A program made the position numbers and the translations under genes. 64,000 nt of DNA, from NCBI GenBank assembly GCA_963751455.1, contig CAVVUN010000009.1, positions 382,889 to 446,888 on the forward strand. The letters run 5' to 3'. This stretch comes from Nitrospirota bacterium (GTDB taxonomy: Bacteria; Nitrospirota; UBA9217). The notes beneath the pieces were generated by a model. The model saw nothing but the letters and a program-made list of their open reading frames with translations. It ran no database searches and was not told the origin of the DNA. Shown here one piece after another: positions 1 to 52,344 of this stretch (the stretch's first letter is position 1; each line of letters starts with the position of its first letter).

Positions 1-1
1 T

Positions 2-3715: not shown

Positions 3716-3739
3716 GGACCTGAGTATTGCACCGCAATT

Positions 3740-5762: not shown

Positions 5763-5771
5763 GCTTTATCT

Positions 5772-6914: not shown

Positions 6915-6954
6915 CTATTTTTTTATTTTTATTTTTTAATAAGGAATGTAAATC

Positions 6955-34969: not shown

Positions 34970-35045
34970 GCGGGTGTAGCTCAGTTGGTAGAGCACAACC
35001 TTGCCAAGGTTGGGGTCACGAGTTCGAGTCTCGCCACCCGCTCCA
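34970..35045 (+). tRNA. tRNA-Gly (GCC)
   Basis: 76 nt cloverleaf: GCGGGTG acceptor, AGCTCAGTTGGTAGAGC D-arm, CAACC-TTGCCAA-GGTTG anticodon arm, GTTCGAG T-loop, encoded CCA. Confidence 0.97.
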
Positions 35046-35069
35046 TTTAAGGCATAGAATATCAGGGAG

Positions 35070-36293
35070 TTAAGCGACACTGCTTAGCTCCTTTTCTATT
35101 TGTTGTGAAGGCTGAGCGGTCGACTGTGCTAGTTTTGTGTCAGTTGGAAGGGCGTATACTTCGTCCATAACGTGAACTGCTTTGGTGAGGTGTGCTGGGG
35201 CGAGATGAGCATACTTCATCGTCTGTTTGAGGCTCTTGTGTCCTAACAGCTTCGAGAGTGTAGCGATATCGATTTTCCCGGACATCATAGCGAGACTTGC
35301 AAACGTATGTCTTAGGTCGTGGAAGTGAAAATCACTTATCTTCGCATTCTTGACCGCAGTATTGAAACTCCGCTTCACACTGTCAAATGGCTTTAAGGTA
35401 AGCGGATCATGGAAGACGTAGGGCGCCAGCTCCTTCTTACCGTCCTTCTCAATAAAGTTGCGAGGGAGCTTGTTTAAGGTTGCCCGGAGAGTCGTATTGA
35501 TCGGTATTTCTCTCCTTTCCCCGTTCTTCGTCTTTTCCAGAAGAATAAATCCGTGCTGCAGGTCCACGTTATCCCATTTCAGCTTTAGGATCTCCCCTTT
35601 CCGCATTCCAGTATGGAGGGCGGTAATAACGACCGGCTGTAAATGAGGATCGCATACGCTGACAAGCTCCTGGGCCTCTTTCGCCGATAGATACCGCAAC
35701 CGGCCGACTTCCTTCGGGAGCTTTACCTTACGGATCTTCTTCAAGACCGTTTCCTCGACCATATCCCACTCGACGGCCTTCGTGAACATATTCTTGACCG
35801 TGTTCATTATCCGGTTGACACTTGAATCTTCCATTGGTCCGGGGGCGAGAGTTTTACCGGATTTAAAGACCTTCGGTTTTCGAAGCCCCTTCTTTCCAAG
35901 GCTTCTCTGTAACTCTTCCATTATATGAAGGTTGAAGCGTCTTATCAGTGTATTCCCTAGTTTGATTATCTCCGGTCTTCCGTTCGCGTCGATAATTGTA
36001 AGTTCACGTTCTTTAAGCCGGTCAATCATGTATCCCTTGACCGTACCAGAGCCCTGGCCTTCGACGGATTGTTTGTATCTGTCTGCCAGTATGTCAAAGC
36101 GATAATCTATAATCTTCTTCGGCTGCTCTGGTTCCTTCCCGGCCTTGATCGAAGCTACTGCCTTTGCTCTCGCGTCTACAGCGTCGGCTTGCTTTGAGGA
36201 AAAAGATGATTTTCGAATCATCTTCCCGGTATGGTCCGGGTAACGATACCACCAAGCGCCGCCGCGTTTATAAACTCCGCGATACTTCGCCAT
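35070..36293 (-). CDS. Tyrosine integrase
   Basis: N-terminal arm-binding-like region, TGMRKGE, TKNG, FHDLRHTFAS, LLGH, TMKYAH; complete R-K-H-R-H-Y set. Confidence 0.95.
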   Translation of the reverse strand: MAKYRGVYKRGGAWWYRYPDHTGKMIRKSSFSSKQADAVDARAKAVASIKAGKEPEQPKKIIDYRFDILADRYKQSVEGQGSGTVKGYMIDRLKERELTIIDANGRPEIIKLGNTLIRRFNLHIMEELQRSLGKKGLRKPKVFKSGKTLAPGPMEDSSVNRIMNTVKNMFTKAVEWDMVEETVLKKIRKVKLPKEVGRLRYLSAKEAQELVSVCDPHLQPVVITALHTGMRKGEILKLKWDNVDLQHGFILLEKTKNGERREIPINTTLRATLNKLPRNFIEKDGKKELAPYVFHDPLTLKPFDSVKRSFNTAVKNAKISDFHFHDLRHTFASLAMMSGKIDIATLSKLLGHKSLKQTMKYAHLAPAHLTKAVHVMDEVYALPTDTKLAQSTAQPSQQIEKELSSVA

Positions 36294-36310
36294 AGGACCT
36301 CCTTTCCTTT

Positions 36311-36616
36311 TTACTTTTCGACTCTAAAAACCACATCCGAAATCTTTTTTAAAATGGCTACAGACTCGGCATCCCGGGTAATGACAACCCTCTTCCCTGA
36401 TTTAATGAGTTCCGATATAATTCGAGTTGATTGTAACTTCAGGCTGGATACCGTCTCTTTCCGGCCTGTCACTGTACCGCTTATCGGTTCCAAGAGTGCC
36501 ACAGGTTTACCGTGTTTGGTAATTATAATCTGCAGCTTTCCCTTTTCCACCTCTGCGACAAGTTGAGTGGCCTTTCTCTCAATCTCGGAGACAGTGACAA
36601 ATTTCACACCGGTCAT
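36311..36616 (-). CDS. Phd/YefM-family protein with two tandem Phd domains
   Basis: VTVSE...IIITKHGKPVALL and ETVSSLK...VVITRDAESVAIL repeats. Confidence 0.7.
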   Translation of the reverse strand: MTGVKFVTVSEIERKATQLVAEVEKGKLQIIITKHGKPVALLEPISGTVTGRKETVSSLKLQSTRIISELIKSGKRVVITRDAESVAILKKISDVVFRVEK

Positions 36617-36699
36617 TCCCTCACCTCCCTTCTAGCCTGGTCCGATTATAGGTAAATCATTACTTAATGTCAATATAATAAAACGGTCTATAAAGATAC

Positions 36700-36984
36700 T
36701 CACTGAATAGAATTCGGCCTTCTCGTTGGGATTTCTTCGAAAAGACGATCAATAGGCTTTTTCCTGAACCGATAAATACCGTCCTTCTTTAAATGAGGGA
36801 GTTCATGGATATGGTTATATACCCATTTGGGCGTCGTAAGAAGATATTCGGCAAGGGTTTCGACCGTGAAGATAGTGTCTTGGGAAGTCTCGAGCTGATT
36901 TGCAGTAAATAAATACGGTTTAAGTATCTCCGCAACCTCGCGGGCGATCGCTTTTACATCCTCATCTTGGAATTCGATCTTCAT
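36700..36984 (-). CDS. Excisionase-like helix-turn-helix protein
   Basis: FTVETLAEYL...WVY...LPH.K.....RF.K..ID HTH_17 pattern; near the integrase. Confidence 0.78.
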   Translation of the reverse strand: MKIEFQDEDVKAIAREVAEILKPYLFTANQLETSQDTIFTVETLAEYLLTTPKWVYNHIHELPHLKKDGIYRFRKKPIDRLFEEIPTRRPNSIQ

Positions 36985-37016
36985 GTAAAATCCTTATCCA
37001 TCTTCTTCAACTTGAG

Positions 37017-37601
37017 TCAAAACAGAGTATCCTTGTTAATCACCGCTTGAAACGTGTTTGTGTTCATTGAGGGATTGATTTTAGCGAAAGCGTCATTCAA
37101 TAACTTCTGAGCACGGAGCGTTTGCGCCGGAGTCCGATAGTTTGTTATTCCCAAGAACTTTATCAGTTCGCTCTGCAGGTCCATCTCGTATCCGTCAAGG
37201 CTAAAGAAGCAGAAGCTTATATCATCGCCCTTCGGTAAAAAATGCCGTGTTTCCGTGTTGCCGGTCCCGAGGGCATAAAATTCTATCTGCCCGTTGGAAT
37301 TGACGCCGCCGAAACCGACAAAGACCTTGCCATGCCGATACGGTTTCTCTCGCAATTTGGCCTGTACATGATCGGCGACGGCCTGAAAATCCCCGTTGTT
37401 AGGTTCGAGCAATCCCGTTTCTCCGAGGAAATTTAGAATCAAGGCACGATCCGCGCCGCCGAAACCAACAATGAAATGCGGACTCACGCGAAAGAACTTT
37501 TTAAAATCTTCTTCACCGGTTGGTTTGCCCTCGCGTGAGACACGCCCCTCGCTCATTACGGTTAGGAAATTCTCCCGGGCAATAATAGAAATGAATGACA
37601 T
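37017..37601 (-). CDS. Hypothetical protein, possible Ntn-hydrolase/proteasome-beta-like fold
   Basis: Start MSFISII...VMSEGRV...KKFFRVS..FIVGFGG resembles the proteasome-beta N-terminal pattern; ORF track start 37694 overlaps the upstream gene. Confidence 0.45.
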   Translation of the reverse strand: MSFISIIARENFLTVMSEGRVSREGKPTGEEDFKKFFRVSPHFIVGFGGADRALILNFLGETGLLEPNNGDFQAVADHVQAKLREKPYRHGKVFVGFGGVNSNGQIEFYALGTGNTETRHFLPKGDDISFCFFSLDGYEMDLQSELIKFLGITNYRTPAQTLRAQKLLNDAFAKINPSMNTNTFQAVINKDTLF

Positions 37602-37603
37602 AA

Positions 37604-38524
37604 TTATTCTTCCTGCCAGAAGATAGCCTCTGAAACGGTAAGCTGTGCCATATCCGCCCCTGCAGTCTCTTTGCAGTAAAATCCGGCCACACAATCCGCG
37701 TTCGTAGACCCGGAGGGGATGCCGGTCGTGATTGACCCCTTTAAAACGTCGTCCACATAAAAGCCAACGTTATTAGATGCCGTTCTTTTGATCTCATATT
37801 TCTTCGTGGCGCCGGATACGGTTGTACTCAGATCGACTGTAGTCTCACCGCTGCCGTTGTTGACCACCCCGTAAAGTGTGGTGCCTACGAGTTTGAACGC
37901 AATCATCCGGGCAGAAACAGACGCAGCATCTATCATGCCCCAATAAGCAAGAAAATTTGCATCATTGCTGAATATTCTAACTTTCGATTTCCAGCGCCGG
38001 TTTTTGTCCCATGTGTAATCGAGAAGAGGCAGGCTCATCTTTTTGGTTGCGCCTGCCACATCACTGCCGGTGTTCACCGTTAAGATGATATCATTCCCGC
38101 CGGCTGTAACAGAGCCGCCGGCCGTAGTATTGACTGACAGAGAGTCAACATCCCCGAAAAGCAAATGGAGAAATATAGAAGTGTTGTCGTATGCGTTCGC
38201 ACCCAGGATACGGGTTTCCGGACCGATTGAGACATTTGTTCCATCGAATTGAAGATACTGTTTTTCGGATCCAATAAAGAACTTGGGCTTGTTGCTGTCA
38301 TCGTCGTCTATGCCGATGATAAAACCGGAGGCTGCGCCGCTGTTGGCAAAATCGCCGGTTGCGATGCCCGCTCGGATTTCTACGTCTCCTGTGCCGTCAG
38401 AAACTTCAAGCGTTATGGTTTTGCTCGTTATAGATCCGGCGGTGAGCTTATTTACATTGAGGGCGACAATGGCACTTCCAATCAAAAGCGATTTGAAAAA
38501 TTTCTTAATCTTCATGAAATACAT
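37604..38524 (-). CDS. Phage tail-fibre/receptor-binding-like protein
   Basis: LNVNKLTAGSIT tail-protein repeat, Gly/Thr-rich beta region, C-terminal lectin-like segment (YEI...VGFYVDDVL). Confidence 0.55.
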   Translation of the reverse strand: MYFMKIKKFFKSLLIGSAIVALNVNKLTAGSITSKTITLEVSDGTGDVEIRAGIATGDFANSGAASGFIIGIDDDDSNKPKFFIGSEKQYLQFDGTNVSIGPETRILGANAYDNTSIFLHLLFGDVDSLSVNTTAGGSVTAGGNDIILTVNTGSDVAGATKKMSLPLLDYTWDKNRRWKSKVRIFSNDANFLAYWGMIDAASVSARMIAFKLVGTTLYGVVNNGSGETTVDLSTTVSGATKKYEIKRTASNNVGFYVDDVLKGSITTGIPSGSTNADCVAGFYCKETAGADMAQLTVSEAIFWQEE

Positions 38525-38551
38525 ACCTCCGTCTGCGTCTCCTGATCGAAG

Positions 38552-38890
38552 TTATAATTTGCCATACCGAGCGCGGCTTTCATTTATTTTTGATATAGCC
38601 AGCTCAGCCAGAATATCAGTCAATATTTCGCTATATCTGGTTGCTATCGCTTGAACGGCGGTTTCGATGGACTGAACTTCATCGGGAGTTAATCTTGAGG
38701 GAAGGTCTATTTCATATTTGAGATTATTTAATCCATGCTTCTCAACAAGAGCCAGGACCTCATCACGTTTACTTTTCAGATCCCGTGCGAGTGCCATGTT
38801 TTTCGCTTCAAGAACATCGTCCAAAATAACTTTGAAGGCATCGATTATCGTCTTATTCAGTTTCTCCGGGAACTGAAAAACTTGTGCCAT
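38552..38890 (-). CDS. Hypothetical protein
   Basis: 112 aa ORF with GGAG RBS, tightly spaced in the minus-strand operon. Confidence 0.6.
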   Translation of the reverse strand: MAQVFQFPEKLNKTIIDAFKVILDDVLEAKNMALARDLKSKRDEVLALVEKHGLNNLKYEIDLPSRLTPDEVQSIETAVQAIATRYSEILTDILAELAISKINESRARYGKL

Positions 38891-38904
38891 ACAGTGGTCT
38901 CCTT

Positions 38905-40488
38905 TTAATTGTTATTCATTGTGTCGTAAATGGGTCCATGATCGTGGTATTCTTCAGCAACGGCCGTGGCCGCTTTCTTTTTAAATTCATCGTAGCCGTA
39001 TACGTCGCCGCCGATATGATAATGAATCTCTGTTTTTCTGTTCTGCCCCTCTCCCGGACGCCAGCCGGTGCCGCCGGACTGCGGGTTCCGGGGATCCTGC
39101 TCGTAGAAGTATTGATAGCCCCGGCCCTCGGCAAGACCGGTTGCTGAATTGGCGGCATAGGTGCCGACTGCGCCGCCTCCGCCTGCACCTCCGTCGAAGG
39201 TTTGTGCCCGAATCTTTGCAACCTGGGCAAGGCCAAGGGCAACCACCGACGCAGCAAGTGCCCAACCATATACGCCGCCCTGCGCAATGGCTTTAGATGC
39301 TCCTTGATATGTGTTGATAATTGCCTCGCTGATTGCTGCAGTCTTGTATATCGAGAACCATTTTCGAGCATGGGCGCCGCCCTCCTGGTACATAAGCGCG
39401 GCTGTCTGAGATATGTTGCCAGCAGTAGCTTGAGCCGACTGAAGCTTCATTTGATCGGACGCCTTCTGGTGTTTTAAAAGGAGCGACTGGCGGGCCATTT
39501 CATTACTGACAAAAAAGGCCGATCTCTCATCTTCGGTCTTGAGCGTGTCGTATTTCAATGCGGCCACGGCGGCGAAGGCTGCAATCTCCACTTGCTGTAC
39601 CTCTTCCATCCTTGCACCGTAGGCCCGATAGAGATCGACCCGTGATTGTTGATATGACACCTCATCGTTCAATGCCTTTTTTCTAGCGTTTTCCTGAAGC
39701 GTAAATTCACGGATCTGGGCGAATTCGAATTCGGAGTAGGCAGGCGACGACGAGGGGGATGGGCCTTTTTCTGATGCCGCAAGGCGTTCACGCATTACTT
39801 TGGTTTTCTTTTCTTCAAGATCAAGTTGGCGTCTGTCTTGTTCGGTAATGAGTCTGGACTGCAGGAGCGACTGTCCGCGAAAAGTAGCTTCTGCAGCAGA
39901 AAAAAGCGTCAATTTATTTCTCATATCGAGAACCTTCTGCTCTTGTTCGAATATGCCGCGCTCAAGCTGATCCTGGTTCCGTCTATATTCAGCTTTTCTA
40001 AGCTCCTCCTCGGCACTTATAAGTTCCTTTGTTTTTTGCAGAGACTTGTCTGCCTGCCCTATCCAAGTCATCGCGGCATCGGCCGCTTTCAGTATTTCAT
40101 CCCGAAGCTTCAGCTTCGCTTCTGCTGCTTTTTTTGCTTCTTCGGCTAGTTTATTGTTACGATCAATCAAGTGAGTAATTACGCTCACTGCGGCTGTGCC
40201 TGCGAGCACCCCAACGCCCAGGGCAGCGCCCCATGCGGGGAAGACCGAGAAGGCCATGCGTTCAACCGAATTCCCGAGTTGACGGGAGGCCTGGCCGTGA
40301 ATACCAATGGCCTGAGCGCTGTTCTGGACGGCGTCGCCGAAGGCGATGATGCCGAGGCGCGAGGCCTCGCTCTGCTTGCCGGCTTTCTCAGTGGCCTTGC
40401 CGGCGTCTTCGACGTGCTTCTTGAAGTTCTGGACTTTGATGGTCCCGTTGTCGTCGACTTCAAGAGTCATGAGGAAGGTTTCTGACAT
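38905..40488 (-). CDS. Tail tape-measure-like protein (527 aa)
   Basis: N-terminal LEVDDNG, Ala/Gly-rich hydrophobic stretch, long coiled coil, C-terminal K.AAISEAIINTYQGASKAIA...AQVAKIRAQ typical of tape measure proteins. Confidence 0.7.
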   Translation of the reverse strand: MSETFLMTLEVDDNGTIKVQNFKKHVEDAGKATEKAGKQSEASRLGIIAFGDAVQNSAQAIGIHGQASRQLGNSVERMAFSVFPAWGAALGVGVLAGTAAVSVITHLIDRNNKLAEEAKKAAEAKLKLRDEILKAADAAMTWIGQADKSLQKTKELISAEEELRKAEYRRNQDQLERGIFEQEQKVLDMRNKLTLFSAAEATFRGQSLLQSRLITEQDRRQLDLEEKKTKVMRERLAASEKGPSPSSSPAYSEFEFAQIREFTLQENARKKALNDEVSYQQSRVDLYRAYGARMEEVQQVEIAAFAAVAALKYDTLKTEDERSAFFVSNEMARQSLLLKHQKASDQMKLQSAQATAGNISQTAALMYQEGGAHARKWFSIYKTAAISEAIINTYQGASKAIAQGGVYGWALAASVVALGLAQVAKIRAQTFDGGAGGGGAVGTYAANSATGLAEGRGYQYFYEQDPRNPQSGGTGWRPGEGQNRKTEIHYHIGGDVYGYDEFKKKAATAVAEEYHDHGPIYDTMNNN

Positions 40489-40494
40489 AAAATT

Positions 40495-40686
40495 TTACTC
40501 CTCGTTGAGGTGTAAAAGCTCGTTCAGTTGGGCATTTAATTCGCGATCTAGTTGCTGGATCTCTTCAGCCGTGGGACGCGGATCAAAGTCCTTGCACCCG
40601 GGCCCGGAGCACAGCACTTGACGACCTGGCTGACTGATATCGAATCCGCAGATACCCTTGGCGTTCCAGATGCACGCAGTGTTCAT
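40495..40686 (-). CDS. Small Cys-containing hypothetical protein
   Basis: 63 aa with four Cys; start overlaps the upstream stop. Confidence 0.5.
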   Translation of the reverse strand: MNTACIWNAKGICGFDISQPGRQVLCSGPGCKDFDPRPTAEEIQQLDRELNAQLNELLHLNEE

Positions 40687-41279
40687 GCCTGTTTTTTGGT
40701 TAGGCCATCGAGTTCCTTCACCAGCGCATCAAAATCTGTTCGACGAGGCACCGGTAGCCGCAAAGCCTCAATCAAAAACCGGGAAAAATCCACATCCGGT
40801 AAACCGATCAGCATCATACCGGACGACAACTTCTCGGCCGCGTATGCCGCATAGATATCCGGGAGTGCCCGCAGACATCGCACACGAAGAGTATTAAATA
40901 TTTTCGAGTAGAGAATTGATTTTGCCACTGCTATTGGATGGCCCGCCCCCGGATTGCCTTCAGCCTCGATCGCGGCAAGAGCCTCTTTGACCGCATCTAT
41001 TTGGATGGTCGTTTCCTCGATTGAATTTTTGAGTTTGGTTCGCTGGCGCGATATAGTGGCTTGATGTTCAGAATCTATTGGCAATATCGCGATTGCACTC
41101 TGTTTGAACTGCTCTGCATTTTCTTCCAGCAGACTTACATTGTTTGTTGAGATTTTCTCCAACTCGACAAGTCGGGCACAGAGCGCCTTCTTTTTTTCGG
41201 TGCGGTTGTACTCACCATCCTCAACTTTGTGATATGCGTTGAGAGCTTGCTCAATGTCGGGCGTTATCGTTATTTTCAT
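40683..41279 (-). CDS. Hypothetical coiled-coil protein
   Basis: 198 aa, strong AGGAGG RBS, heptad-rich N-terminal half. Confidence 0.65.
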   Translation of the reverse strand: MKITITPDIEQALNAYHKVEDGEYNRTEKKKALCARLVELEKISTNNVSLLEENAEQFKQSAIAILPIDSEHQATISRQRTKLKNSIEETTIQIDAVKEALAAIEAEGNPGAGHPIAVAKSILYSKIFNTLRVRCLRALPDIYAAYAAEKLSSGMMLIGLPDVDFSRFLIEALRLPVPRRTDFDALVKELDGLTKKQA

Positions 41280-41306
41280 TGTTCCTCCTTTGATGGAATC
41301 GCAAAG

Positions 41307-42245
41307 TTACTTTTTCGGCGCGAGTGGGTTTTTTGTTCGTGCTTCCTGCTCCGCAAGTCTCGCAGCGCGGCGTTCTGCGAGCGTCTTCGGTTTTAACAAA
41401 TTTCCGAGCCGCATGGGTTTATTTGTCTCAGATTTTTCTATGGTTTGTTCGGGAATTTTATTTGTCCGTGCTTCTCGCTCCGCGAGTCTCTCCGCGCGGC
41501 GTTCTTTGAGTGTCTTCGGTTTAAGCAAGTTACCTAACCGTACGGGTTTTTTTGTCTCCTCTTTTTCGGTCTGTTCGGGTGCTTCGCCGTATGTTTTGAC
41601 GCTCATGCCGTGCTGGGCCCCGAGGTAGACGAGCGAGCCTTCGGTCATCTCGGTACGCGGGCCGCTGCCGCGGTACTCCCAGAACAGGATCGAGTCGTCC
41701 TTCTCATTTCTCATTGGGACGAGGTTCTCTGCGCGAAAACCGATGGAGGCGAAGTCATATATGCCTGTGTCGATGCCGACAATTACCGATTCGGGTACGA
41801 ACTTGACCGGGATGTAGAACGAGCAGGTGAGGAACCAGACCTCGGACTTGCCTGCCGGCAGCTGAAAGCTTTCTCCGGTCTCTGCATTCGCCTGCTGGAG
41901 CGGGAGCTTTTCGATCGTGCAGTCGAAGAACTTTCCGACGCCGCTCATCTGGACGTTTCGTCCGTGGTCGAACATCATGGTCTTCCGGAGCGCCGTGGCC
42001 GCGAAGCGGGTGAGCACCTCCTCGGAGAAGCGCTCGTTGTCGCGGTCGATCGCGTTGTTCGCCATGCGGATCTGGCCGACATAAAAATCTTCGGCTTTAT
42101 AATCCTTGCGCGTGAACTGGTTGATCAGGGCGAGATGCTCGGGCGTGGGTCTGGATGGCGACGACTTGAGGCCAGCAAACTTTATTTGTTTGCTGCCGAT
42201 AATATTCTGGATCGTTTTGCCGCTGCTCTTTGCGTTGTTGTTCAT
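41307..42245 (-). CDS. Phage prohead protease/scaffold-like protein with duplicated basic C-terminal repeat
   Basis: NAIDRDNERFS, FDH, ASIGF, EGSLVYLGAQ resemble caudoviral prohead protease H/S/E motifs. Confidence 0.65.
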   Translation of the reverse strand: MNNNAKSSGKTIQNIIGSKQIKFAGLKSSPSRPTPEHLALINQFTRKDYKAEDFYVGQIRMANNAIDRDNERFSEEVLTRFAATALRKTMMFDHGRNVQMSGVGKFFDCTIEKLPLQQANAETGESFQLPAGKSEVWFLTCSFYIPVKFVPESVIVGIDTGIYDFASIGFRAENLVPMRNEKDDSILFWEYRGSGPRTEMTEGSLVYLGAQHGMSVKTYGEAPEQTEKEETKKPVRLGNLLKPKTLKERRAERLAEREARTNKIPEQTIEKSETNKPMRLGNLLKPKTLAERRAARLAEQEARTKNPLAPKK

Positions 42246-42589
42246 GTAGTCCTCCAGTTGGGTTTGTCGTTGCGGAAAAGCGGCGTCAGTATTTGGCTCT
42301 TCTGTATTTTCACGTTTTGCATGATTTCATCTTTAACCAAACGAAGAGTCTCGACAAAACGCTGTATCTTTTCGTCGCCACAAAATTCTTTGATTAACCT
42401 CTCTACTTCAGCAGTCCTCGAAAAAACAAATTTGACTTCGACAGTTGCGCCAAAACTCTGCCTGACAGTCCGATACGGGATATCAGGAACACCGCTCTTG
42501 ACGAACGCCCACAATTCGTAACTCGTGGTACTGTACGTTCTCTCACCCTCGATTAGTTTGTATTTCATATATGCTCCGTGCTCTCTCAA
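42242..42589 (-). CDS. Hypothetical phage protein
   Basis: 115 aa ORF whose stop overlaps the next start; first gene of the structural-like operon. Confidence 0.6.
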   Translation of the reverse strand: MREHGAYMKYKLIEGERTYSTTSYELWAFVKSGVPDIPYRTVRQSFGATVEVKFVFSRTAEVERLIKEFCGDEKIQRFVETLRLVKDEIMQNVKIQKSQILTPLFRNDKPNWRTT

Positions 42590-42705
42590 ATATTAACGGG
42601 CCCCATCAGAGCCGAGCAGCTGCATATGGACCGGATGGTTGCTTGCGGCGTCAACACCCGGTAAGAAGGAGGACGCTGCTCGGCTCTGATCGAACCCGCT
42701 CCTCA

Positions 42706-42762
42706 AAAAATAAAAAAGCCGAAGACATCGGTCCATCGAACTGGAACCGACGAAACTTCGGC
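42706..42762 (-). terminator. Intrinsic terminator-like hairpin upstream of the structural-like operon
   Basis: Minus strand GCCGAAG...CTTCGGC followed by TTTTTTATTTTTT. Confidence 0.55.
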
Positions 42763-43068
42763 TGCGGTATTTTCTTTTTTTTTGTTCATTGTCGCCCCTC
42801 TATATGGCTATGACGCCAGAAGTTATCATTTCGCTACCACACAAGGCAAGCGAACCTTTTCGAGGAGTTTCGTAAGTCCTCAAAAAAAATAATTAGAAAA
42901 TGGCACAAGTTTTGCTTTTTTGTGGTAAAAATATGTAGGCTTTGAGGGTAAAGATGAACCTTCGGTTAGTTACTTGGCGATAGTCCTGCGGTATGGCGTT
43001 CAATGAGGCGGTGAAGTACGATCGCTGCTTGGTGTAGAATTCGATCTCAATTAATGGGAGGGACTTTA

Positions 43069-44367
43069 TTAGCCATGATGAGCATCCTTTGCAGCACGTT
43101 TTAGGCGCGTCACAATATCTACGGTTTCTTCGCTTAATCTCGTTTTAATTCTTTGACTGGTGCAATTCAATGTTTCGGGCAGCACTGTTTCAATGATGTA
43201 GGTCTCCGGATCATCTAATAAATTACCTAACTCGCTTTTTTCGACATCGATGAGTGGCACAAGTCGACGGTCGATTGATTTCACTTTTATCTTCTTTTTA
43301 TTCCAGTCATTATCAACCCTGTGAATTATTGTTTCGCCGAATGCGTCTTTGTATCGATCGCGAATATCCCATGCAATCGCTAACAGAAAATGCTTAAGGC
43401 CTGTCACATATAACAACTCAGGAATGTCGCGCCTTTTCTTGTTCCCATCATAATGATTCTCAATTTGCTGTATTAAAGGATAGGCAGCTTTCTGCTCATC
43501 AACCGTCCCATGAAAATAATCCCGAAGCCTTCTCTCAAATTGCACCCGTAAAAAAACGATATTGTCATCTTGCGATTGAAAAAAATCAGGCAGTCTTTGC
43601 AGAGCGTCAAATATGTCTTTGTCTACTCAAGCACGTCCGAGCTCATATTCTTTTTGTTGTTCAGTAGTAAGGCCCTTAGTACTTTTGGTTTTTTCCATAT
43701 AATCGAAAAGCTTTTGGTAATGCAATCTCGGAAACCTAAAAGAATATCGAGGGGTCATAGAAGTATACGTGCCGTCAGCGATATCGCGCCGGATTTGTTT
43801 TTGAACATCCTCAAAACTAAAATCCGCCTCAAATCCATCGCTAATACCGTATCTAAAATACAGTGGTTTCCAATAGCCATCCTTAATCATTTTTACAGCT
43901 TCCTGATTTTTGGCAAGGTCATTAATATTTTTTTTAGCGATGATACTTGGGGTGAATGTTGCGTGACATTGTTTATGGGCCGATGATGACGACATCAACA
44001 CAAACCCATCGGAATGAAATTTTTCTATTGCCTTATTCGTGCCGCCATACCACGCACGCTCTTGAGGCAAAGCTACACGTGAAAGGAGTTTTATTGTTTT
44101 GTGCCACGTAGCAACAGGCAGGGATAACGCACTACTATGGAAAAATATTTTTATGAGGTCTTTTCGTTTACTCTTACTGTATGGACCTTTAAGTATTTCT
44201 TGTAATTTTACATTTGCATCAGTAAGGTTGCGCGCTGTTTGTTTTTCATAGTCTGCTGCAATTTCATCGATGATGTTTTCTACAAATTTATCGTGACTAA
44301 TTTTTTTATTACGTAAAAGTGTAAAATTTCTGTCATATATCTCTTCAGCTCTCTCGGTATCTATCAT
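43069..44367 (-). pseudogene. AT-rich cargo gene interrupted by one in-frame TGA (43627-43629)
   Basis: ORFs 43627-44367 and 43069-43545 share a frame; the gap reads ELGRA*VDKDIFDALQRLPDFFQSQDDNIVFLRVQFE with no other stop. Confidence 0.6.
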
Positions 44368-44518
44368 CTCCGCCTCCGTGCGGTCTCCGAGTGGAAGGAA
44401 CAGGGGAAGGCCGATCGGAGTTTCGGCCGTGTCGTCCGGGGTTCGAAGTCCCGGACTATCCCCCTTTGCTACACAACTCTATCATAAACAGAAATTCAGT
44501 TCAATAAAAACTCCTACG

Positions 44519-45544
44519 TCAAACGTGATTCGTTGCGCTGCCTGAAACGTGTCCCGCGTGATTGTGCGTGACAGGCTCTGCATTGCTGATATTAATAGCG
44601 GATTCTGGCTCAGTCCATACGCGGCCAAATTCAAGCCAGTACTCGTGCCAGGACCGGTATTCTTTATGTATCCTCTCGCGCCGCGTGATGTATCGCGCTG
44701 CGGTCTCCAGGTTCTCCCATCCCATGCGCTGCATGATCGCGAACACGTCATAGCCGCGCACGTGCCGCGCGTCGCAGGCATGCGATGCACGGAGCATATG
44801 ACATTTTATTTTCGCCTTCCGAAGCCCTGCCCGTTTTGCAAGTTTCTTGATCAGCATATCGAGAGACCTCGTGGTCAGTCGTTTGCCGCTGGACCGGCCG
44901 CTATGACTAACCAGCAGGGGATCTCCGGTCCTTGCTCCGGCTGAAACGCGCGCGATAAGCAGTTGCCGGATGAACATGGACGGCGCGCGCCACAGATAGA
45001 CGGATCTGCCGGCGCCGCGCTTGGTTTTTGGAATTACCAGATCCATCTCCTTGCCGTCGTCCTGGATATGATCGATATTAAAATTTACGATTTCGGAAAC
45101 GCGAAATCCGGCGAACGCTCCGAATATTAAAAAGCAGGCATCCCTAAGGCCCATATCTGTTGTGACGTCGATCGTACCGAACAGCCGCAAGATTTCTTCG
45201 CGTGTGAAAGTCTGCATGAACGGTTTAGTCGACCGCATACGCGGGATCGAAGCTGAGGGATCATCATTCATTTCTCCCGTGTATCGTAAAAATCTGAAAT
45301 AAGATTGTAACGCTATCAGCTTCGTGGTTCGTGTTTGGTTTCCATTGCCGCGGAGAAAACAATATTCAAGATACCTTTCGATATCGCCTCGGGTTGCCGG
45401 TCCGTCCAGTGCATTGCCATCTCTCCAGTTTAGGAACTCTTCGACATGTCGACGATAGGCGGACACGGAAGAGGAAGCGAGTCCTTTAAGAACGGCCAGG
45501 TGCTTTTCAAAATTTTGAAGCACTAAATTCCGGTCCGTCATCAC
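44519..45544 (-). CDS. XerC/XerD-like tyrosine recombinase (catalytic residues intact)
   Basis: SAM-like N-domain, GFRVSE, TKRG, CHMLRASH, MGW...TAARY. Confidence 0.9.
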   Translation of the reverse strand: MMTDRNLVLQNFEKHLAVLKGLASSSVSAYRRHVEEFLNWRDGNALDGPATRGDIERYLEYCFLRGNGNQTRTTKLIALQSYFRFLRYTGEMNDDPSASIPRMRSTKPFMQTFTREEILRLFGTIDVTTDMGLRDACFLIFGAFAGFRVSEIVNFNIDHIQDDGKEMDLVIPKTKRGAGRSVYLWRAPSMFIRQLLIARVSAGARTGDPLLVSHSGRSSGKRLTTRSLDMLIKKLAKRAGLRKAKIKCHMLRASHACDARHVRGYDVFAIMQRMGWENLETAARYITRRERIHKEYRSWHEYWLEFGRVWTEPESAINISNAEPVTHNHAGHVSGSATNHV

Positions 45545-45996
45545 TGTTTCTCCGCCTCGTTGATGATATTGTTAATTTGCGTCTTGCTGAGCCTGAAGCG
45601 TTCGATCAATTCCTGGTAATTTTTCCCATGATAAAGATTACGAATCTTCGTGTTGCGTTCGATCCGGAATAGAACTTCGTGATCGGGGAAACGGATCCTG
45701 GTCCCGCCAAGTTCGACCATGATCTTGTTCATGATCGCCCGGCCCGATGCGCGGCCGAACTCCTCGCAGGTGCTGCGCCACAGTTGCTTAAAATTAGACC
45801 CGCTGGAAGCAAGCGGGTCCGGCCCGGGCTTCGGGACCCAAATCCTGCATCGGCCGGCCTGGGCAACAATATGCCGTATGATTTTTTTCCCTGGCTCATC
45901 TCCAAAATCAGCGACGATGCTCTGAAACAGCCGCCTGACTGCTTCGCGGTTACGTCGTTGTGAAACGATTTTAGCTCCGATCGGCACGCCCTCCAT
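45541..45996 (-). CDS. Mor/C-family transcription activator-like protein
   Basis: ELGGTRIRFP...ERN.KI...Y.G.N..EL..RF.LS..QI..II Mor signature; dimerisation segment appears duplicated (FG...G..I....G..RI..P twice); start uncertain. Confidence 0.75.
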   Translation of the reverse strand: MEGVPIGAKIVSQRRNREAVRRLFQSIVADFGDEPGKKIIRHIVAQAGRCRIWVPKPGPDPLASSGSNFKQLWRSTCEEFGRASGRAIMNKIMVELGGTRIRFPDHEVLFRIERNTKIRNLYHGKNYQELIERFRLSKTQINNIINEAEKQ

Positions 45997-46942
45997 GGGA
46001 CCATAATTTTGAAAACTCAGACCAGTAGTCCTCAAGTGAGTTAAATTTATCTTTTTGATCAACGTGGGGAAAGTCCTGGAAAGCCCGGTCAATCTGCGTG
46101 TAGCTCTTGTACCCCATACGTTCTTTTATCTGCGGTGCATCAAAGCCGATAATATACCGAAGGTCCCAAAGATGCGATATGCGGAGCATATTTGTTTTTA
46201 TTACCGGCTTCATGATGCCTGCGGACTGGGCGAGCGACTTAATACAATCGTCAAGGGCGTGCGGTGTCAGCCGGCGATTGCCTCGAGGCTCGCCACTCTT
46301 TTTGTAGCTTACCAGGAGCGGATCTCTAAATCCCGCTCCTTTGTCCATGCGAGCATGTGTTAACGAGCGAACAATTGCGCTCGGTTGTTCCCAAAGCGAA
46401 ACACTGCGTCCGTTTACGGCAAGATCGATGCATCTTCCACGTTGAAGCAAATGAACGTTCTGGAGATTCGCTGAAACAATTTCTCCGAGACACAAGCCTG
46501 CCATTGCTCCCAGAACCAGGAAGACGGCATCCCGGAGACCTTTCTCCCGGGTAATATCGCAGGCCGCGAACATTTTTAAGATCTCGCTCTGCTCGAATAC
46601 TGCCAGGGGTCCATTCTTTCGCGGCGGCCGGCGGATGCTGCCAATTGGATTTGCAGGGATAACCCCGGTCTCAACCAGGTGTCGGAAGTAGTTTTCTATG
46701 CCCGCCATTTTGCGCGAGAGGGTAGAATTTCCGTTTCCATGCCGCTGCAGGTAGCGAAAGAACCCCTCGGCATCCTTGCGCAGTTCTAAGGGCTCCAGAG
46801 ACGCAAGCGAGGGTTTCCCCTGACGCCATGCCAGGTATTCCGCTGCACTTCTCCGGTAAGAGCCGGTAGACGAGGCCAATAAGCCATCTGCCAGCAACTG
46901 TTTTTCAAATTGGTCAAGATGTTCGTTCTGTTCACTGTTCAT
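45971..46942 (-). CDS. XerC/XerD-like tyrosine recombinase paralog with degenerate active site
   Basis: Collinear with 44519-45544 but has GLCLGE (R to C), TNMLR (H to N) and MGY...IDRAF (no Tyr at the nucleophile position). Confidence 0.82.
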   Translation of the reverse strand: MNSEQNEHLDQFEKQLLADGLLASSTGSYRRSAAEYLAWRQGKPSLASLEPLELRKDAEGFFRYLQRHGNGNSTLSRKMAGIENYFRHLVETGVIPANPIGSIRRPPRKNGPLAVFEQSEILKMFAACDITREKGLRDAVFLVLGAMAGLCLGEIVSANLQNVHLLQRGRCIDLAVNGRSVSLWEQPSAIVRSLTHARMDKGAGFRDPLLVSYKKSGEPRGNRRLTPHALDDCIKSLAQSAGIMKPVIKTNMLRISHLWDLRYIIGFDAPQIKERMGYKSYTQIDRAFQDFPHVDQKDKFNSLEDYWSEFSKLWSHGGRADRS

Positions 46943-47380
46943 AGTTTCCGCTCCCCCCGCGCCCCCCACTTTTTCAAAAAAAGAAGCATTAAAAAATCAC
47001 TTTCAAAAAAGGTTTTAGATATACCCCCAATTTATAACCAGCAATGAGGGCGCTTGTCGACAAATAATCAAATATTTTTCAAGGGGGGTGGTCCTGAGAA
47101 CCGGACCACCGACCACCAAATTCAAAACGAACCGCACAATTCTAAATAAATAAACCATGTAAATCATTGAAATTGTGTTCTCAATAAACCTGCAACCGCA
47201 CAGTTTAATAATTATGTGCGGTAACAATTCGGCTGAATTTCGGCTGAATTCCCCTCATGAGAGGATATCACCAAGACAGACAGCGCACAGATAACAAAGT
47301 TGACCAATGCTGATGCTAAAATAATAAAAAAAATTATAATTAAATTTAACTTCTTAGAATCAGTTTTATAAGAAATCTAA

Positions 47381-48181
47381 TCAATTAAAAGTCTTCAGCT
47401 GCCTACCCATCGCATCGCCTGACGGATTGTTGCCGCCGTGGCTCGCCTTGAAGTTTGCCACTTCGAGCACAACATACCGACTAACAAACTCCTTGTGTAA
47501 TCGATCACCGTTTTGGCCGTGTAATTCGATAATCTTTTCACGTCCGCCAAGATCGAAAAAGATCTTTGCTGACAAAGTGTCACTGAGAATGACCTTGTCG
47601 GTTGATTTCACAACAATCGTCTCGAAAGTGGTCCAGGCTTCTTCCGCTTTTTCGAAAGCAATTTTTTCAATACTGGTTGGGCGCTTCCCCCCTTCTTTTG
47701 GAGAAGGAGAAGGAGAAGGAGAAGGAGAAGGAGAAGGAGAAGGAGCATTGCTAATTGCATGTGGAACTTGTGCCGCTTGCATGCCATTGGCATTATTATT
47801 TTTTGCTTTGTTATTCCATCTCTTAGAGGCGTTTTGACGGGCAATCTTTGAACGCTTCTTGAAAGAAACAACCCACGGTTGATGTTCCTTCCAATCGTGT
47901 ACTTTTAAGAATTTTTTACCGGATTTTTCGCCTTTATCTAGAAATTTCACCTGATCGCTGGCAAGGAATTCTATGAATTGCGAGCAATCGGCATCCCGGC
48001 CGCAAGCCAGTTGCATGCGGTATTCATCCCATCCGCTCAGGTCTCCGTCTTGCTGATGCTCAGCACAGTATCTCCATAGCTTCAAGAGCGAAACTATCCC
48101 GCTATCGCCGTATTCTTTATGGAGTCTCTTGGTTTTATGGTGATCGAAAAAAGACAGTTTGACCCGAAAGTCATCGAGCAT
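47381..48181 (-). CDS. Phage replication initiator/replisome-organiser-like protein
   Basis: FFDHHKT.RL...G...L.KLW N-domain, VHDWKEHQP, A.KRW, then NAPSPSPSPSPSPSP linker typical of phage initiators. Confidence 0.7.
   Translation of the reverse strand: MLDDFRVKLSFFDHHKTKRLHKEYGDSGIVSLLKLWRYCAEHQQDGDLSGWDEYRMQLACGRDADCSQFIEFLASDQVKFLDKGEKSGKKFLKVHDWKEHQPWVVSFKKRSKIARQNASKRWNNKAKNNNANGMQAAQVPHAISNAPSPSPSPSPSPSPSPKEGGKRPTSIEKIAFEKAEEAWTTFETIVVKSTDKVILSDTLSAKIFFDLGGREKIIELHGQNGDRLHKEFVSRYVVLEVANFKASHGGNNPSGDAMGRQLKTFN
47702..47744. repeat. (GAAGGA)n hexamer repeat encoding the Pro-Ser linker
   Basis: About seven tandem copies, directly visible. Confidence 0.85.
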
Positions 48182-48467
48182 AGGACTCTTTCCTCCGTTG
48201 GCCGACAGTTCCCCTCGATCCCGTGCCGCACCGATCGCTCATGGCCATGACGTGTAGCTTTCCTGAACCATTGATCGTCTGAATAATGGCTGCCTCGTGC
48301 TCCAATGCCAGGTCCGGGTGCAGCCGTCGGACTTCTTCGCCTGCTTTGCGAGCTGTAGCGGCCATGCGTGAAAAATGCTCAGGGCAAGAATTAATGACCG
48401 GCCGCGGTGTTTCACGGTGCCAGAATGCGTAATGCTCGGCTTCTTTGTCGCAGTATGAGCACTTCAT
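48171..48467 (-). CDS. Small hypothetical protein with CxxC...CxxH motif
   Basis: MKCSYC...SCPEH; GGAGG RBS before ATG 48467. Confidence 0.55.
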   Translation of the reverse strand: MKCSYCDKEAEHYAFWHRETPRPVINSCPEHFSRMAATARKAGEEVRRLHPDLALEHEAAIIQTINGSGKLHVMAMSDRCGTGSRGTVGQRRKESYAR

Positions 48468-48478
48468 TGTTGCCTCCC

Positions 48479-49213
48479 TTAAATCGCGGCTAATTCCGCC
48501 ACATCGGCCATTTCTTCGTCCGTTGGCCCCTGATATATCGCTGTGGACTGAATCGATTTGTGCCGTGCGAATTTCTGGATCTCGGTCAACGAAGCGCCGC
48601 GTTCCTTCAGTCGCTTCAGGCAAGCGTGACGAAGCGAATGGACCGTATAGAGCGCCATCTGTCTGCCGTCGACCTCGACACACAGACCCGCCCGGATCAT
48701 CCAGAATTCAACAAGCTCATTGATGGACCGTAAGGAAAGCCGGACACCTCTACGGGAAACAAACAAGGGAGCATCATCGCTGATGGATTCCCTCCGGGTG
48801 TTCAGTTTGTGCCCGATGAACGTCTTCAGTACCCGCTGGATGTGTCTATTGATAGGCACATGGCCGCAGCTCCCCATCTTCGCAATTTCAGGCTTCACCC
48901 ACAGCCTGGCTTGGTTCCTCACATCGCCGACACTCAACCCGGCAAGTTCTGCCCGCCGGAGCGCCAAATTCAGGAACGTCTCGATGATCACGTAATCACG
49001 CTCTGCCTGGCGCCCGATCGTGGTATCACTGCCCCTTACTTCCTTGATCGTTTTGAGAAGCTGCCGCTGCTCATCGGCGGAAAGAAATTTGTACTGAGCT
49101 CTGTTTCGCTGCTTCCGGATCCGGCCAGGCTCCAGGACAAGCCTTTCGTTTGGGCCATAGATGCCTTTGAATTCCGCTGACGTTTCTCTGCTTGTCGCTA
49201 ATATCGTTGTCAT
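48479..49213 (-). CDS. Tyrosine recombinase, catalytic domain only
   Basis: LALRRAEL, AKMG, VHSLRH, ARH.SIQSTAIY; lacks the N-terminal SAM-like domain; GGAGG RBS before ATG 49213. Confidence 0.88.
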   Translation of the reverse strand: MTTILATSRETSAEFKGIYGPNERLVLEPGRIRKQRNRAQYKFLSADEQRQLLKTIKEVRGSDTTIGRQAERDYVIIETFLNLALRRAELAGLSVGDVRNQARLWVKPEIAKMGSCGHVPINRHIQRVLKTFIGHKLNTRRESISDDAPLFVSRRGVRLSLRSINELVEFWMIRAGLCVEVDGRQMALYTVHSLRHACLKRLKERGASLTEIQKFARHKSIQSTAIYQGPTDEEMADVAELAAI

Positions 49214-49243
49214 GATTGCCTCCATATCATGTGCCTCAGATTA

Positions 49244-49299
49244 CTCTCCGGCCCAGGCCGAGGCGGGCTTTTCGGGCTGCAGACCCTATGACCGGAGAG
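49244..49299 (-). ncRNA. Structured leader RNA, copy A (C4/CI antisense-like)
   Basis: CTCTCCGG/CCGGAGAG closing stem enclosing two hairpins; near-identical to copy B. Confidence 0.55.
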
Positions 49300-49339
49300 C
49301 GTGACAATGTGACACGCGTGACTGCGCGTTACGCTGCCT

Positions 49340-49912
49340 TTACGGCTGTTCCTTGAACTGTTTGTCCACGATCACTTTTACCAATACGGATAAATCCTCA
49401 AAGCGGATCCCTAACAACTCCAGAGCTTGCCACACGTGTTTTTTGAAGAACGATTCGTCGACATTGTCACTTTCGCATGACACCTGGATTACTTCGATAA
49501 GTGATTGGATTTCAATCAGCCTGATCGGAACAGCGTTCAGAATGTCATAGTCGTTTTGACTCATCAGAACAGGATGGAGAATATCCGCTACCTCGTGCTG
49601 CTTTTCTGTTCCGGACGAAGGGCGAGATGCCGGCGATAAGCTTTCCGCCGTGGCCATCTTCGAGCTGGTACGATTTATAATTTCTGTGAATTCATCATCA
49701 GGCATTCCAGCGACAGATGCCGCGATTAAAATAATGTACGCGCTCTCGCTAAACTGTGTTTTTTTGTTGCTGCTGATTTTGTCTTTGATACGGTGACGCT
49801 GTTCGTGAGACAACGTCGCCAAAAATGAAATCATGTTCTTCAATCGCGTAATTGCCTTTTCGTCACTGCTGACAGCCTTTGAATCTTTACTCGTTTTAAC
49901 TTTGCTTTTCAT
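49340..49912 (-). CDS. Hypothetical protein
   Basis: 190 aa, GGAGG RBS, first gene of the element's minus-strand array. Confidence 0.65.
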   Translation of the reverse strand: MKSKVKTSKDSKAVSSDEKAITRLKNMISFLATLSHEQRHRIKDKISSNKKTQFSESAYIILIAASVAGMPDDEFTEIINRTSSKMATAESLSPASRPSSGTEKQHEVADILHPVLMSQNDYDILNAVPIRLIEIQSLIEVIQVSCESDNVDESFFKKHVWQALELLGIRFEDLSVLVKVIVDKQFKEQP

Positions 49913-49944
49913 GGTAGCCTCCGTATCATGATTGCCTCAGGTTA

Positions 49945-50001
49945 CTCTCCGGCCCAGGCCGAGGCAGGGCTTTTCGGGTTGCAATCCCTAGGACCGGAGA
50001 G
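49945..50001 (-). ncRNA. Structured leader RNA, copy B (C4/CI antisense-like)
   Basis: Same closing stem and hairpins as 49244-49299. Confidence 0.55.
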
Positions 50002-50167
50002 ATCAATAAGTTTCAAATTACACAAAGCAACTGTGCTACTTGCTGTGTTAGTAGAGGGGTTCCAAAAGAAGGAAAATAGGTACATCCCCTCTTTTCGTCT
50101 AAAGCAGCAAGGTCAATAAAAGCACATAGAAGGGAAAGGCGGGGAGTTACAGCGGGTTATTTGGGCG

Positions 50168-50230
50168 ACCTTGCCAAGGTTGGGGTCACGAGTTCGAGTC
50201 TCGCCACCCGCTCCATTCAAGGCATAGAAT
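50168..50230 (+). repeat. att site: duplicated 3' part of tRNA-Gly plus 15 downstream bases
   Basis: ACCTTGCCAAGG...CCCGCTCCATTCAAGGCATAGAAT matches 34998-35060. Confidence 0.95.
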
Positions 50231-51236: not shown

Positions 51237-52344
51237 TTAACTGTCTCAAAATAGTGTTTACATAATTACGCACTTATGCTATGCTGTTTCGCATGAAAAA
51301 GACAGATGCGAGACGACTTGATCACAAGACTCTGACAGAACTGAGAAAACGTGCGGTAGCCAGTGTGCAGGAAGGTCAAAGCCCTGAGCTTGTAGCCAAA
51401 GCACTGAGTATTCACCGGGTAACCATCTATGGATGGCTGTCTCGATACCGCAACGGCGGCTGGGGTGCTCTGGACGCAAGCAAGCGCGGCGGACGCCCTA
51501 CGAAATTGGACGCTAAAGCCATGCAATGGATCTATCGCACCGTGACGATGAAGAACCCTCTTCAGATGAAGTTTACCTACGCCTTGTGGACGGCAAAGAT
51601 GATCGGCCAGATAATCTATCAGAGATTCGGTGTGCGATTGAGCAAGTCTTCTGTGTGCCGCTTGTTGGCGCAACTGGGACTGACGCCGCAGCGTCCTGTC
51701 TGGCGGGCCTATCAGCAAAAACCGGAGGAAGTTCAGCGCTGGCTGGAGAAAGAATATCCGAAGATTCGCAGCCTTGCACGCAAAGAAAAGGCGCAAATAT
51801 TCTTTGGAGATGAAGCTGGTGTTCGCTCTGATCATCATGCAGGCACCACCTGGGCAGTAAAAGGCAAGACTCCCGTTGTGAGCAGCACAGGAGCGCGCTT
51901 TAGTCTGAATATGATCTCGGCGGTAAGCGCACAAGGAGAATTCCGCTTCATGGTCGTCAAGGGGCGGGTAGGAGCGCAGCAATTTATTGAGTTTATCAAA
52001 CGATTGATTCATGGCACTGATCGAATGATTTTTCTGATTGTCGATGGGCATCCTGCCCATAAGGCCAAAAAGGTTTCGAAATTTGTTGAATCCATTAAGA
52101 AGCGCTTTCGACTGTTTTTTCTACCGCCCTATTCACCTGAGTTGAACCCCGACGAGCGGGTCTGGAACGATCTGAAGAATAACGCAATCGGCCAACAGGT
52201 TATTACCTCGCGCGATCAAATGCATGGGGCGGTAATAAGCCACCTGCGATTTATCCAGAAATCACCCGACCGTGTGCGGGCTTACTTCAATAACGAAACA
52301 ACCAAGTACGCGGTTTAATGTTGTTTCTATTATGGGACCGTTAA
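51237..52344 (+). mobile_element. IS630-family insertion sequence
   Basis: TIRs TTAACTGTCTCAAAATAG / CTATTATGGGACCGTTAA; TA duplicated at 51235-51236 and 52345-52346. Confidence 0.92.
51281..52318 (+). CDS. IS630 transposase
   Basis: HTH, FGDEAG, IVDGHPAH, LPPYSPELNPDERVW DDE motifs. Confidence 0.95.
   Translation: MLFRMKKTDARRLDHKTLTELRKRAVASVQEGQSPELVAKALSIHRVTIYGWLSRYRNGGWGALDASKRGGRPTKLDAKAMQWIYRTVTMKNPLQMKFTYALWTAKMIGQIIYQRFGVRLSKSSVCRLLAQLGLTPQRPVWRAYQQKPEEVQRWLEKEYPKIRSLARKEKAQIFFGDEAGVRSDHHAGTTWAVKGKTPVVSSTGARFSLNMISAVSAQGEFRFMVVKGRVGAQQFIEFIKRLIHGTDRMIFLIVDGHPAHKAKKVSKFVESIKKRFRLFFLPPYSPELNPDERVWNDLKNNAIGQQVITSRDQMHGAVISHLRFIQKSPDRVRAYFNNETTKYAV

Follow-up and report, generated by a model that had tools for sequence, protein, structure and literature searches.

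In SaPI1, a pathogenicity island of Staphylococcus aureus, the protein CpmB shares the C-terminal hook of the phage scaffold, binds the same capsid site in competition with the scaffold and redirects capsid size (PMC5644958), and Rcm has been proposed to act like CpmB (PMC12409344). PLEs, elements that resemble phage-inducible chromosomal islands, put their own tape measure into the tails of the helper (PMC12987554) and have a filament-forming outer scaffold, TcaP (PMC10945586). EPIPs of Mycolicibacterium are satellites of ~11 kb with tape measure and scaffolding genes (PMC12822802). Tape-measure satellites and scaffold mimics are both already known. Here we describe a 15,233-bp element at positions 34998-50230 of a window of 64,000 nucleotides from a Nitrospirota bacterium (lineage UBA9217; assembly GCA_963751455.1, contig CAVVUN010000009.1, 382,889 to 446,888). 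The element belongs to a capsid-less, tRNA-integrating lineage, and we consider it likely, from its sequence and that of its relatives, that it is a satellite that would hijack the head and tail assembly of a temperate phage, using a protease with a tripled scaffold motif and a tape measure of its own.

A preliminary description of the locus had called a prohead-protease-like gene. The protein gives no sequence match in Pfam or PDB; the call is favored by the Atlas neighbors, which are Peptidase_S78 clusters (score 0.93-0.94, taken as a lead only), and by the phage synteny of full-length kin. We found 114 homologs, most of them 350-450 amino acids (aa) long and aligning only with the first 220 residues of the window protein. 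His94 and Ser167, which we take to be catalytic, are invariant in 55 sequences. In phages (e.g., locus L010), genes for full-length kin are flanked by portal and decoration/capsid genes, and in many cases a recombinase-Mor pair and the terminases precede them. The C-terminal half of these proteins forms a coiled-coil scaffold with a short end motif, commonly Asn-Pro-Leu-x-Pro. The window protein lacks this coil and carries three motif-like copies, the product of a 129-bp duplication. The gene derives from a phage protease-scaffold gene by loss of the coil and tripling of the terminal motif. It is 85% identical to a full-length protein and sister to a full-length 444-aa protein on the domain tree. 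Within the duplicated motif there are five silent and no replacement changes, against three and nine outside it (Fisher p 0.009, with motif boundaries picked after viewing the data). One capsid clade has a different scaffold end motif, terminating in residues of Glu-Leu-Phe type, in 19 of 20 members (phage loci such as L085, L110, and L128).

The domain end could be placed in 109 of the 114 homologs. Twenty-seven of these are short, about four probably being contig-end fragments, and a loose custom pattern finds at least two motif copies in 15 of the 27, whereas only one of the 82 long forms has them. On a quick tree of 122 domains (one row, P0016, is a mislabeled fragment) the short label changes 14 times, and at least five changes are forced by strong branches, so that short forms have five or more separate origins. 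Among 170 distinct loci, 90 had a complete gene and enough flank (80 were dropped); terminase, portal, and capsid were all missing from seven of seven short-protease loci but from only two of 83 full-length loci. The other 81 have at least one of the three, and the remaining two resemble divergent phages by eye. The islands on which short forms are found are small and come from Kuenenia, Scalindua, Geobacteraceae, Nitrospirae, and metagenomes; a primase and an integrase at a tRNA are present in several.

Several of these islands merit description. L191 (4987-13926, at tRNA-Leu) encodes a recombinase, a small-terminase-like protein, a short protease, a chaperone, a 962-aa tape measure, and a 69-aa peptide with the scaffold motif; it also contains a half-site of the palindrome at 47195-47222 of the window. 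L039 (1294-16112), a 14.8-kb Scalindua rubra island at tRNA-Thr, encodes a primase, a helicase, and a short protease with multiple motifs; its tape measure has 537 aa, and chaperone-like genes are present as well. In the Geobacteraceae-type islands L017 (4292-5083), L018 (9674-10765), L154 (1209-2174), and L158 (73-861), the short protease has the motif at both ends, and L154 additionally has a head decoration gene. The Brocadiales-type islands L013 and L014 carry a short protease, primase-helicase, and DNA methylase, and no tape measure was seen in them.

Profile searches over 401 genomes of the phylum matched the tape measure in nine and the protease in ten. Four tape-measure matches (G027, G225, G135, and G208) lie in phage structural modules and those of G240, G016, G174, and G005 in small islands; G249 was picked up with the protease profile, as the one inspected of the nine other genomes matching it. 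Repeat-bounded elements measure 13,868 (G240), 15,972 (G249), 11,301 (G016), 10,234 (G174), 14,819 (L039), 8,267 (L041), and 14,871 bp (L014, whose 22-bp repeat does not lie at a tRNA); the G005 island reaches its contig end. G240 and G249 are the closest siblings. They occupy tRNA-Arg and tRNA-Gly(ccc), respectively, and the window element tRNA-Gly(gcc), in three genera and with integrases less than 30% identical. Both siblings have the initiator, recombinases, Mor, the 190-aa, 432-codon, and 198-aa genes and a tape measure. The search for syntenic elements suggested in the preliminary description was productive: gene order is mostly that of the window, G249 placing the initiator-recombinase-Mor block first. 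In the protease slot, G240 has a 46-aa peptide consisting of three motif copies, and G249, which has no protease there, a 135-aa piece of scaffold coil with two copies. What is conserved is the terminal motif, which both closest siblings retain without the protease. The 341-aa recombinase, used as a query against 61 relatives, gave no close sibling, and single tape-measure queries of viral contigs gave no matches. The islands of G016, G174, and G005 (L222, L231, and L228) are looser relatives with the tape measure and a Nu1-like small terminase (phrog_57).

Recombinases of the element and its siblings form two clades (support 99 and 100), neither containing any phage locus, and the duplication that gave the 341-aa and 323-aa proteins is older than the split of G240, G249, and the window element. 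Because siblings of the same gene order occur in three genera and at three tRNA sites, with unrelated integrases and phage-free recombinase clades, the lineage has moved without head genes and is not one decayed prophage. The same att-bounded, head-gene-less siblings support the earlier suggestion of a satellite and largely refute the alternative, named alongside it, of a decayed prophage.

The reported absence of capsid, portal, terminase, and tail tube held up in Pfam, PHROGs, and NCBIfam and against 13 profiles made from related phages, none of which gave a match in the window element to large terminase, portal, capsid, decoration, connector, terminator, or tube. Across eight repeat-bounded elements there was likewise no match to the 13 profiles, which also take in a Mu-type protease. 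Pfam and PHROGs also gave no primase or helicase match in the window element. Some virion-related genes do occur in relatives: in L039 and L191 a chaperone or chaperone-like gene accompanies the tape measure, G240 has chaperone-like genes, a small terminase occurs in L041, and an HK97 gp10-like gene in both G240 and G249.

The tape measure aligns over its full length with its family, which is common to satellites and full phages. It had been described as short; at 527 aa, however, it is not clearly shorter than phage copies (565, 567, 647, and ~740 aa), and island copies measure 452, 516, 527, 527, 537, and 650 aa. P0115, a cluster representative on a 12,711-bp contig, has a near-identical tape measure with a shifted C-terminal frame; the window version fits the family consensus. 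Without tube, terminator, distal tail, or hub the element cannot build a tail, so the tail-forming reverse of a capsid-forming satellite that had been envisaged is not supported. The proposed role of the protease/scaffold in remodeling helper virions fits well, and the anatomy found here, coil-less and motif-tripled, is more specific than the one proposed.

The tail-fiber-like gene was correctly recognized, in that its product matches the C terminus of J-like tail-tip proteins and is modeled as a lectin fold. The 306-aa fragment matches the last ~280 aa of proteins of 1,200-2,000 aa (gpJ tip domains were present in two of 19 scanned), and its model (pLDDT 85.6) is a ConA-like sandwich near the Shewanella protein SO2946. 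The view that the whole family carries an adhesin is not supported, since no other fetched locus has this gene; at this position G249 contains a 228-aa gene that is unrelated. The fragment is a recent capture: a swapped tip, a decoy, or a passenger. Fold matches of its head to the binding domains of neurotoxins reflect a generic lectin fold (8%-11% identity) and have no bearing on toxicity. A possible signal peptide was dropped because the start of the fragment aligns with fiber repeats. The 198-aa protein may be an external scaffold, since its predicted hairpin shape would suit a role like that of Sid or TcaP. A 198-aa family across five elements was considered, and leave-one-out searches back only G000, G240, and G249 (E 4e-5, 2e-15, and 2e-18); G174 and G016 were rejected as members (E 0.28 and 1.8). 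A search with the family profile retrieved no sequences beyond those used to make it.

Repeat identity and profile matches confirmed the att repeats, integrase, Xis-like, initiator-like, and Mor-like genes and tape measure of the preliminary description, whose inventory missed three further tyrosine recombinases and a Phd antitoxin. The att repeats are 62/63 identical and cover the 3' part of tRNA-Gly(gcc); no further copy occurs in the 5.7-Mb genome. All 20 called open reading frames (ORFs) lie on the minus strand. From attR the order is 190-aa gene, 248-aa recombinase, 99-aa gene, initiator, 323-aa recombinase, Mor, 341-aa recombinase, broken 432-codon gene, DUF5659, protease, 198-aa and 63-aa genes, tape measure, 112-aa gene, fiber fragment, 194-aa gene, Xis-like gene, Phd, and integrase, followed by attL (Table 1). 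The closest named homologs are mainly from Nitrospirota. Nearly all ORFs had been called uninterrupted. This holds for integrase, initiator, Mor, protease, and tape measure, but not for the 432-codon core gene, of which the ORFs of 246 and 158 aa are two parts split by a TGA.

The initiator is 41% identical to that of G240 and 48% to that of G249. The conserved noncoding region next to it is likely to be the origin and resolution site. Its palindrome recurs 70-313 nt upstream of nine of 39 related recombinase genes, and in none of 780 shuffles or 178 control regions; its 11-6-11 layout resembles that of Xer sites. The 341-aa recombinase is akin to the recombinase that precedes Mor in related phages. 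Three int-alpA-like RNA leaders stand ahead of genes, the window copies scoring under the Rfam cut-off and the G240 copy over it. At the spot of the long hairpin ahead of the structural operon, G240 and G249 have long inverted repeats of differing sequence.

Table 1. Features of the element and its integration site (window coordinates)
Feature	Position	Strand	Remarks
tRNA-Gly(gcc)	34970..35045	+	Integration target
attL	34998..35060		63-bp direct repeat
Tyrosine integrase, 407 aa	35070..36293	-	Full catalytic residue set; PF00589, E 3e-29
Phd/YefM antitoxin-like gene	36311..36616	-	Alone; homologs in G249 and G174
Putative promoter upstream of phd-int	36645..36673	-	Sigma-70 consensus 12/12, by consensus match only
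Xis-like HTH_17 protein	36700..36984	-	E 2e-5
194-aa protein, likely cargo	37017..37601	-	phrog_13232, E 6e-5; not in siblings
Fiber fragment, 306 aa	37604..38524	-	Equals C-terminal part of J-like tail-tip proteins: fiber repeat plus ConA-like lectin head
112-aa protein	38552..38890	-	Not in siblings
Tape measure protein, 527 aa	38905..40488	-	Intact; phrog_1506, E 5.5e-14
Cys-rich 63-aa ORF	40495..40686	-	In chaperone slot before tape measure; weak look-alike in G016, E 0.5
198-aa protein	40683..41279	-	Modeled as long helical hairpin; also in G240 and G249, no counterpart found in phage loci
Prohead protease with scaffold motifs	41307..42245	-	Protease domain (~residues 1-220), three copies of scaffold terminal motif, coil deleted
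Tandem duplication, 129 bp	41329..41567		Multiplies terminal motif
DUF5659 protein	42242..42565	-	First gene of structural operon; DUF5659 also in G249 and G016
Long hairpin	42597..42698		24-nt arms, z -7.1; ahead of structural operon
Core gene, 432 codons	43069..44367	-	One in-frame TGA at 43627-43629; one uninterrupted ORF in G240 and G249
int-alpA-like RNA motif	44385..44466	-	81% identical to G240 copy
Xer-like tyrosine recombinase, 341 aa	44519..45544	-	Catalytic set complete
Mor-family late activator	45541..46038	-	PF08765, E 1e-13; 63% identity to G249 copy
Paralogous recombinase, 323 aa	45971..46942	-	Catalytic Arg, His, and Tyr lost
Conserved noncoding region	46945..47380		73% DNA identity to G249 over 423 nt
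Palindrome, 28 bp	47195-47222		Inside conserved noncoding region
Replication initiator-like protein	47381..48181	-	phrog_9474, E 2e-10
99-aa protein	48171..48470	-	Cys motif
Third extra tyrosine recombinase, 248 aa	48479..49225	-	Catalytic domain only; clade confined to satellite-like loci
Leader repeat copy 1	49218..49299	-	Weak int-alpA match, E 0.03, below cut-off
190-aa protein	49340..49912	-	C-terminal half conserved in G240 and G249
Leader repeat copy 2	49917..50001	-	89% identical to copy 1
attR	50168..50230		63-bp direct repeat

Further observations concern the surroundings. A transposase that we take to be IS630-like (51281-52318) lies inside a sensor kinase gene region just beyond attR. 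A third terminator-like hairpin resembling those after attL and attR is found at 53910-53946, without a tRNA remnant. Positions 1-9000 form a block of low GC content (32%-41%, against 50% for the contig) that is possibly another island. Elsewhere in the genome (C1 635224-635520) a 100-aa C-terminal integrase fragment, 83% identical to the element integrase, sits among insertion sequences near tRNA-Ala and is a remnant of a related element.

These features suggest how the element might work. Infection by a long-tailed temperate phage of the L010 or L156 kind would lead to excision by Int and Xis. Replication would proceed from the initiator and the adjoining conserved region, multimers being resolved at the palindrome by the Xer-like recombinase, and Mor would switch on the structural operon. 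The tripled motif would then bind the helper capsid protein at the site of the scaffold end, competing with the helper scaffold and altering the curvature or size of the shell, which the attached protease could still mature; the 198-aa hairpin may serve as an outer scaffold. The tape measure of the element would be built into helper tails. Packaging would fall to the helper terminase, because no small terminase was found.

A number of observations weigh against this reading. Profile searches of the window element gave neither a small terminase nor a clear tail assembly chaperone. The genome holds no capsid, portal, or large terminase of the related phages, so the helper must come from outside. 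L055, counted among the seven short-form loci, consists of a single gene that lacks the motif. The motif type follows both trees, that of the protease and that of the capsid, and co-variation therefore does not single out the capsid as partner; being confounded by shared descent, it was discarded as proof of a capsid partnership. The post hoc choice of motif boundaries tempers the silent-change count. Fold searches with the model of the 198-aa protein returned generic coiled coils only, Psu, Sid, and TcaP not being listed, although they are not thereby excluded. The fiber fragment is without attachment domains, and neither the siblings nor any other fetched locus gave a match to it. Finally, the Phd gene has no partner toxin, the 323-aa recombinase is catalytically dead by residue loss, and the core gene is broken by an in-frame stop; because of this stop, the window copy may be partly worn.

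The signs of wear lead to the reading that the lineage is one of satellites but that the window copy is defunct, with the fiber fragment and neighboring ORFs as passengers. The stop, the dead recombinase, and the orphan antitoxin all fit this, as do the three ORFs after the tape measure, which are unmatched in any fetched locus. We nevertheless regard it as unlikely. The att repeats are one base apart, and the genes for integrase, initiator, Mor, protease, and tape measure remain intact. The protease, given its identity to a full-length protein, seems to have been captured recently, and a single stop could be an assembly error. That a full temperate prophage was cut down by deletions after integration is very improbable, even though the recombinase-Mor pair, protease, and tape measure stand in phage order and all have close phage kin; an earlier origin of the whole lineage by deletion is likely. 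Siblings at other tRNAs show the same pattern of loss, the 198-aa, 432-codon, 190-aa, and third recombinase genes were not found in phage loci, and decay would not triple a motif and hold it under selection.

The element could also be a defense island, in which the motif protein, tape measure, and fiber fragment act as dominant-negative decoys against the heads and tails of phages and the element itself does not travel in remodeled particles. Loss of the coil and multiplication of the end motif would suit a sink for capsid protein, and a fiber end without attachment domains could poison tail-tip assembly, a step that Tai systems block (PMC11364771); some short-protease loci (L013 and L014) have neither tape measure nor small terminase. 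Yet replication, late-activator, and excision genes are retained across the siblings, the protease active site is invariant, and the lineage is spread over three genera and three tRNA sites. Among 12 proteins scanned, no PADLOC match was better than E 0.002. We judge this explanation improbable and retain, as the likely one, that of a satellite that remodels helper heads and tails.

Satellite families of this kind would escape current detectors because tail genes are forbidden and small terminase and primase are absent. It is conceivable, though we hold it only tentatively, that satellites in several phyla have repeatedly made the protease-scaffold gene of their helpers into a multivalent capsid-binding hook in which the protease is optional, here paired with tape-measure exchange. 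This would be a general and so far undescribed route of capsid remodeling, in which the satellite supplies both the size determinant and the maturation enzyme and, in this lineage, head and tail are both re-specified. The repeated capture points to the short peptide at the scaffold terminus as the part that probably binds the capsid in this unstudied family of scaffolds. Proteins with protease and motifs, with coil and motifs, and with motifs alone make up a natural series for asking how valency sets capsid size. Tape-measure carriage would also be extended to satellites of temperate phages in environmental bacteria. Literature searches, leaving aside subscription papers and supplements, turned up no description of satellites whose protease-scaffold derivatives carry the terminal motif in several copies.

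How does the element compare with established satellite families? It resembles PICIs (phage-inducible chromosomal islands) as well as P4-like satellites in size, tRNA integration, integrase and replication module, and lack of lysis and large terminase genes (PMC10085698). Unlike them, it has no match to a primase-replicase, small terminase, capsid, or Ash, and an initiator-type gene is present in place of the primase-replicase. For a PICI regulator the only candidate is the HTH_17 protein beside the integrase, general library scans giving no AlpA, MerR, or Stl match, and Psu, Delta, and Sid of P4-like elements have no Pfam match in the window element. The PICI model forbids tail genes (PMC10085698), whereas this element has a tape measure and a tail-tip fragment. 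With capsid-forming PICIs (cf-PICIs) it shares virion genes including a head protease, and some cf-PICIs carry tape measures (PMC12987554); capsid, portal, and terminases, all encoded by cf-PICIs, are missing here. The element falls outside the PICI, P4, and cf-PICI definitions (PMC10085698). It is, however, not the wholly new satellite type once suggested, since a tape measure is already part of PLEs, EPIPs, and some cf-PICIs (PMC12987554, PMC12822802). EPIPs differ in their serine integrase, in possessing small terminase and head-tail connector genes, and in their unrelated host (PMC12822802). The PLE of Vibrio cholerae is likewise a capsid-less integrated element with its own tape measure. 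The helpers presumed here are instead temperate phages with tail genes of the non-contractile type, there is no clear chaperone or baseplate hub, and the tape measure is only modestly shorter than its phage kin; no PLE homology turned up in the window element, where no search aimed at PLE proteins was made. PLEs depend on phage ICP1 in Vibrio, and the host here, judged by its nearest named homologs, is not a Vibrio. A close parallel is with SaPI CpmB. In both cases a protein of the element shares the C-terminal motif of a phage scaffold. Unlike a SaPI, the window element has no primase-helicase or small terminase, and its mimic comes from a protease-scaffold gene, with two to three motif copies per chain in the family, a protease domain that is kept, and a capsid binding that we infer.

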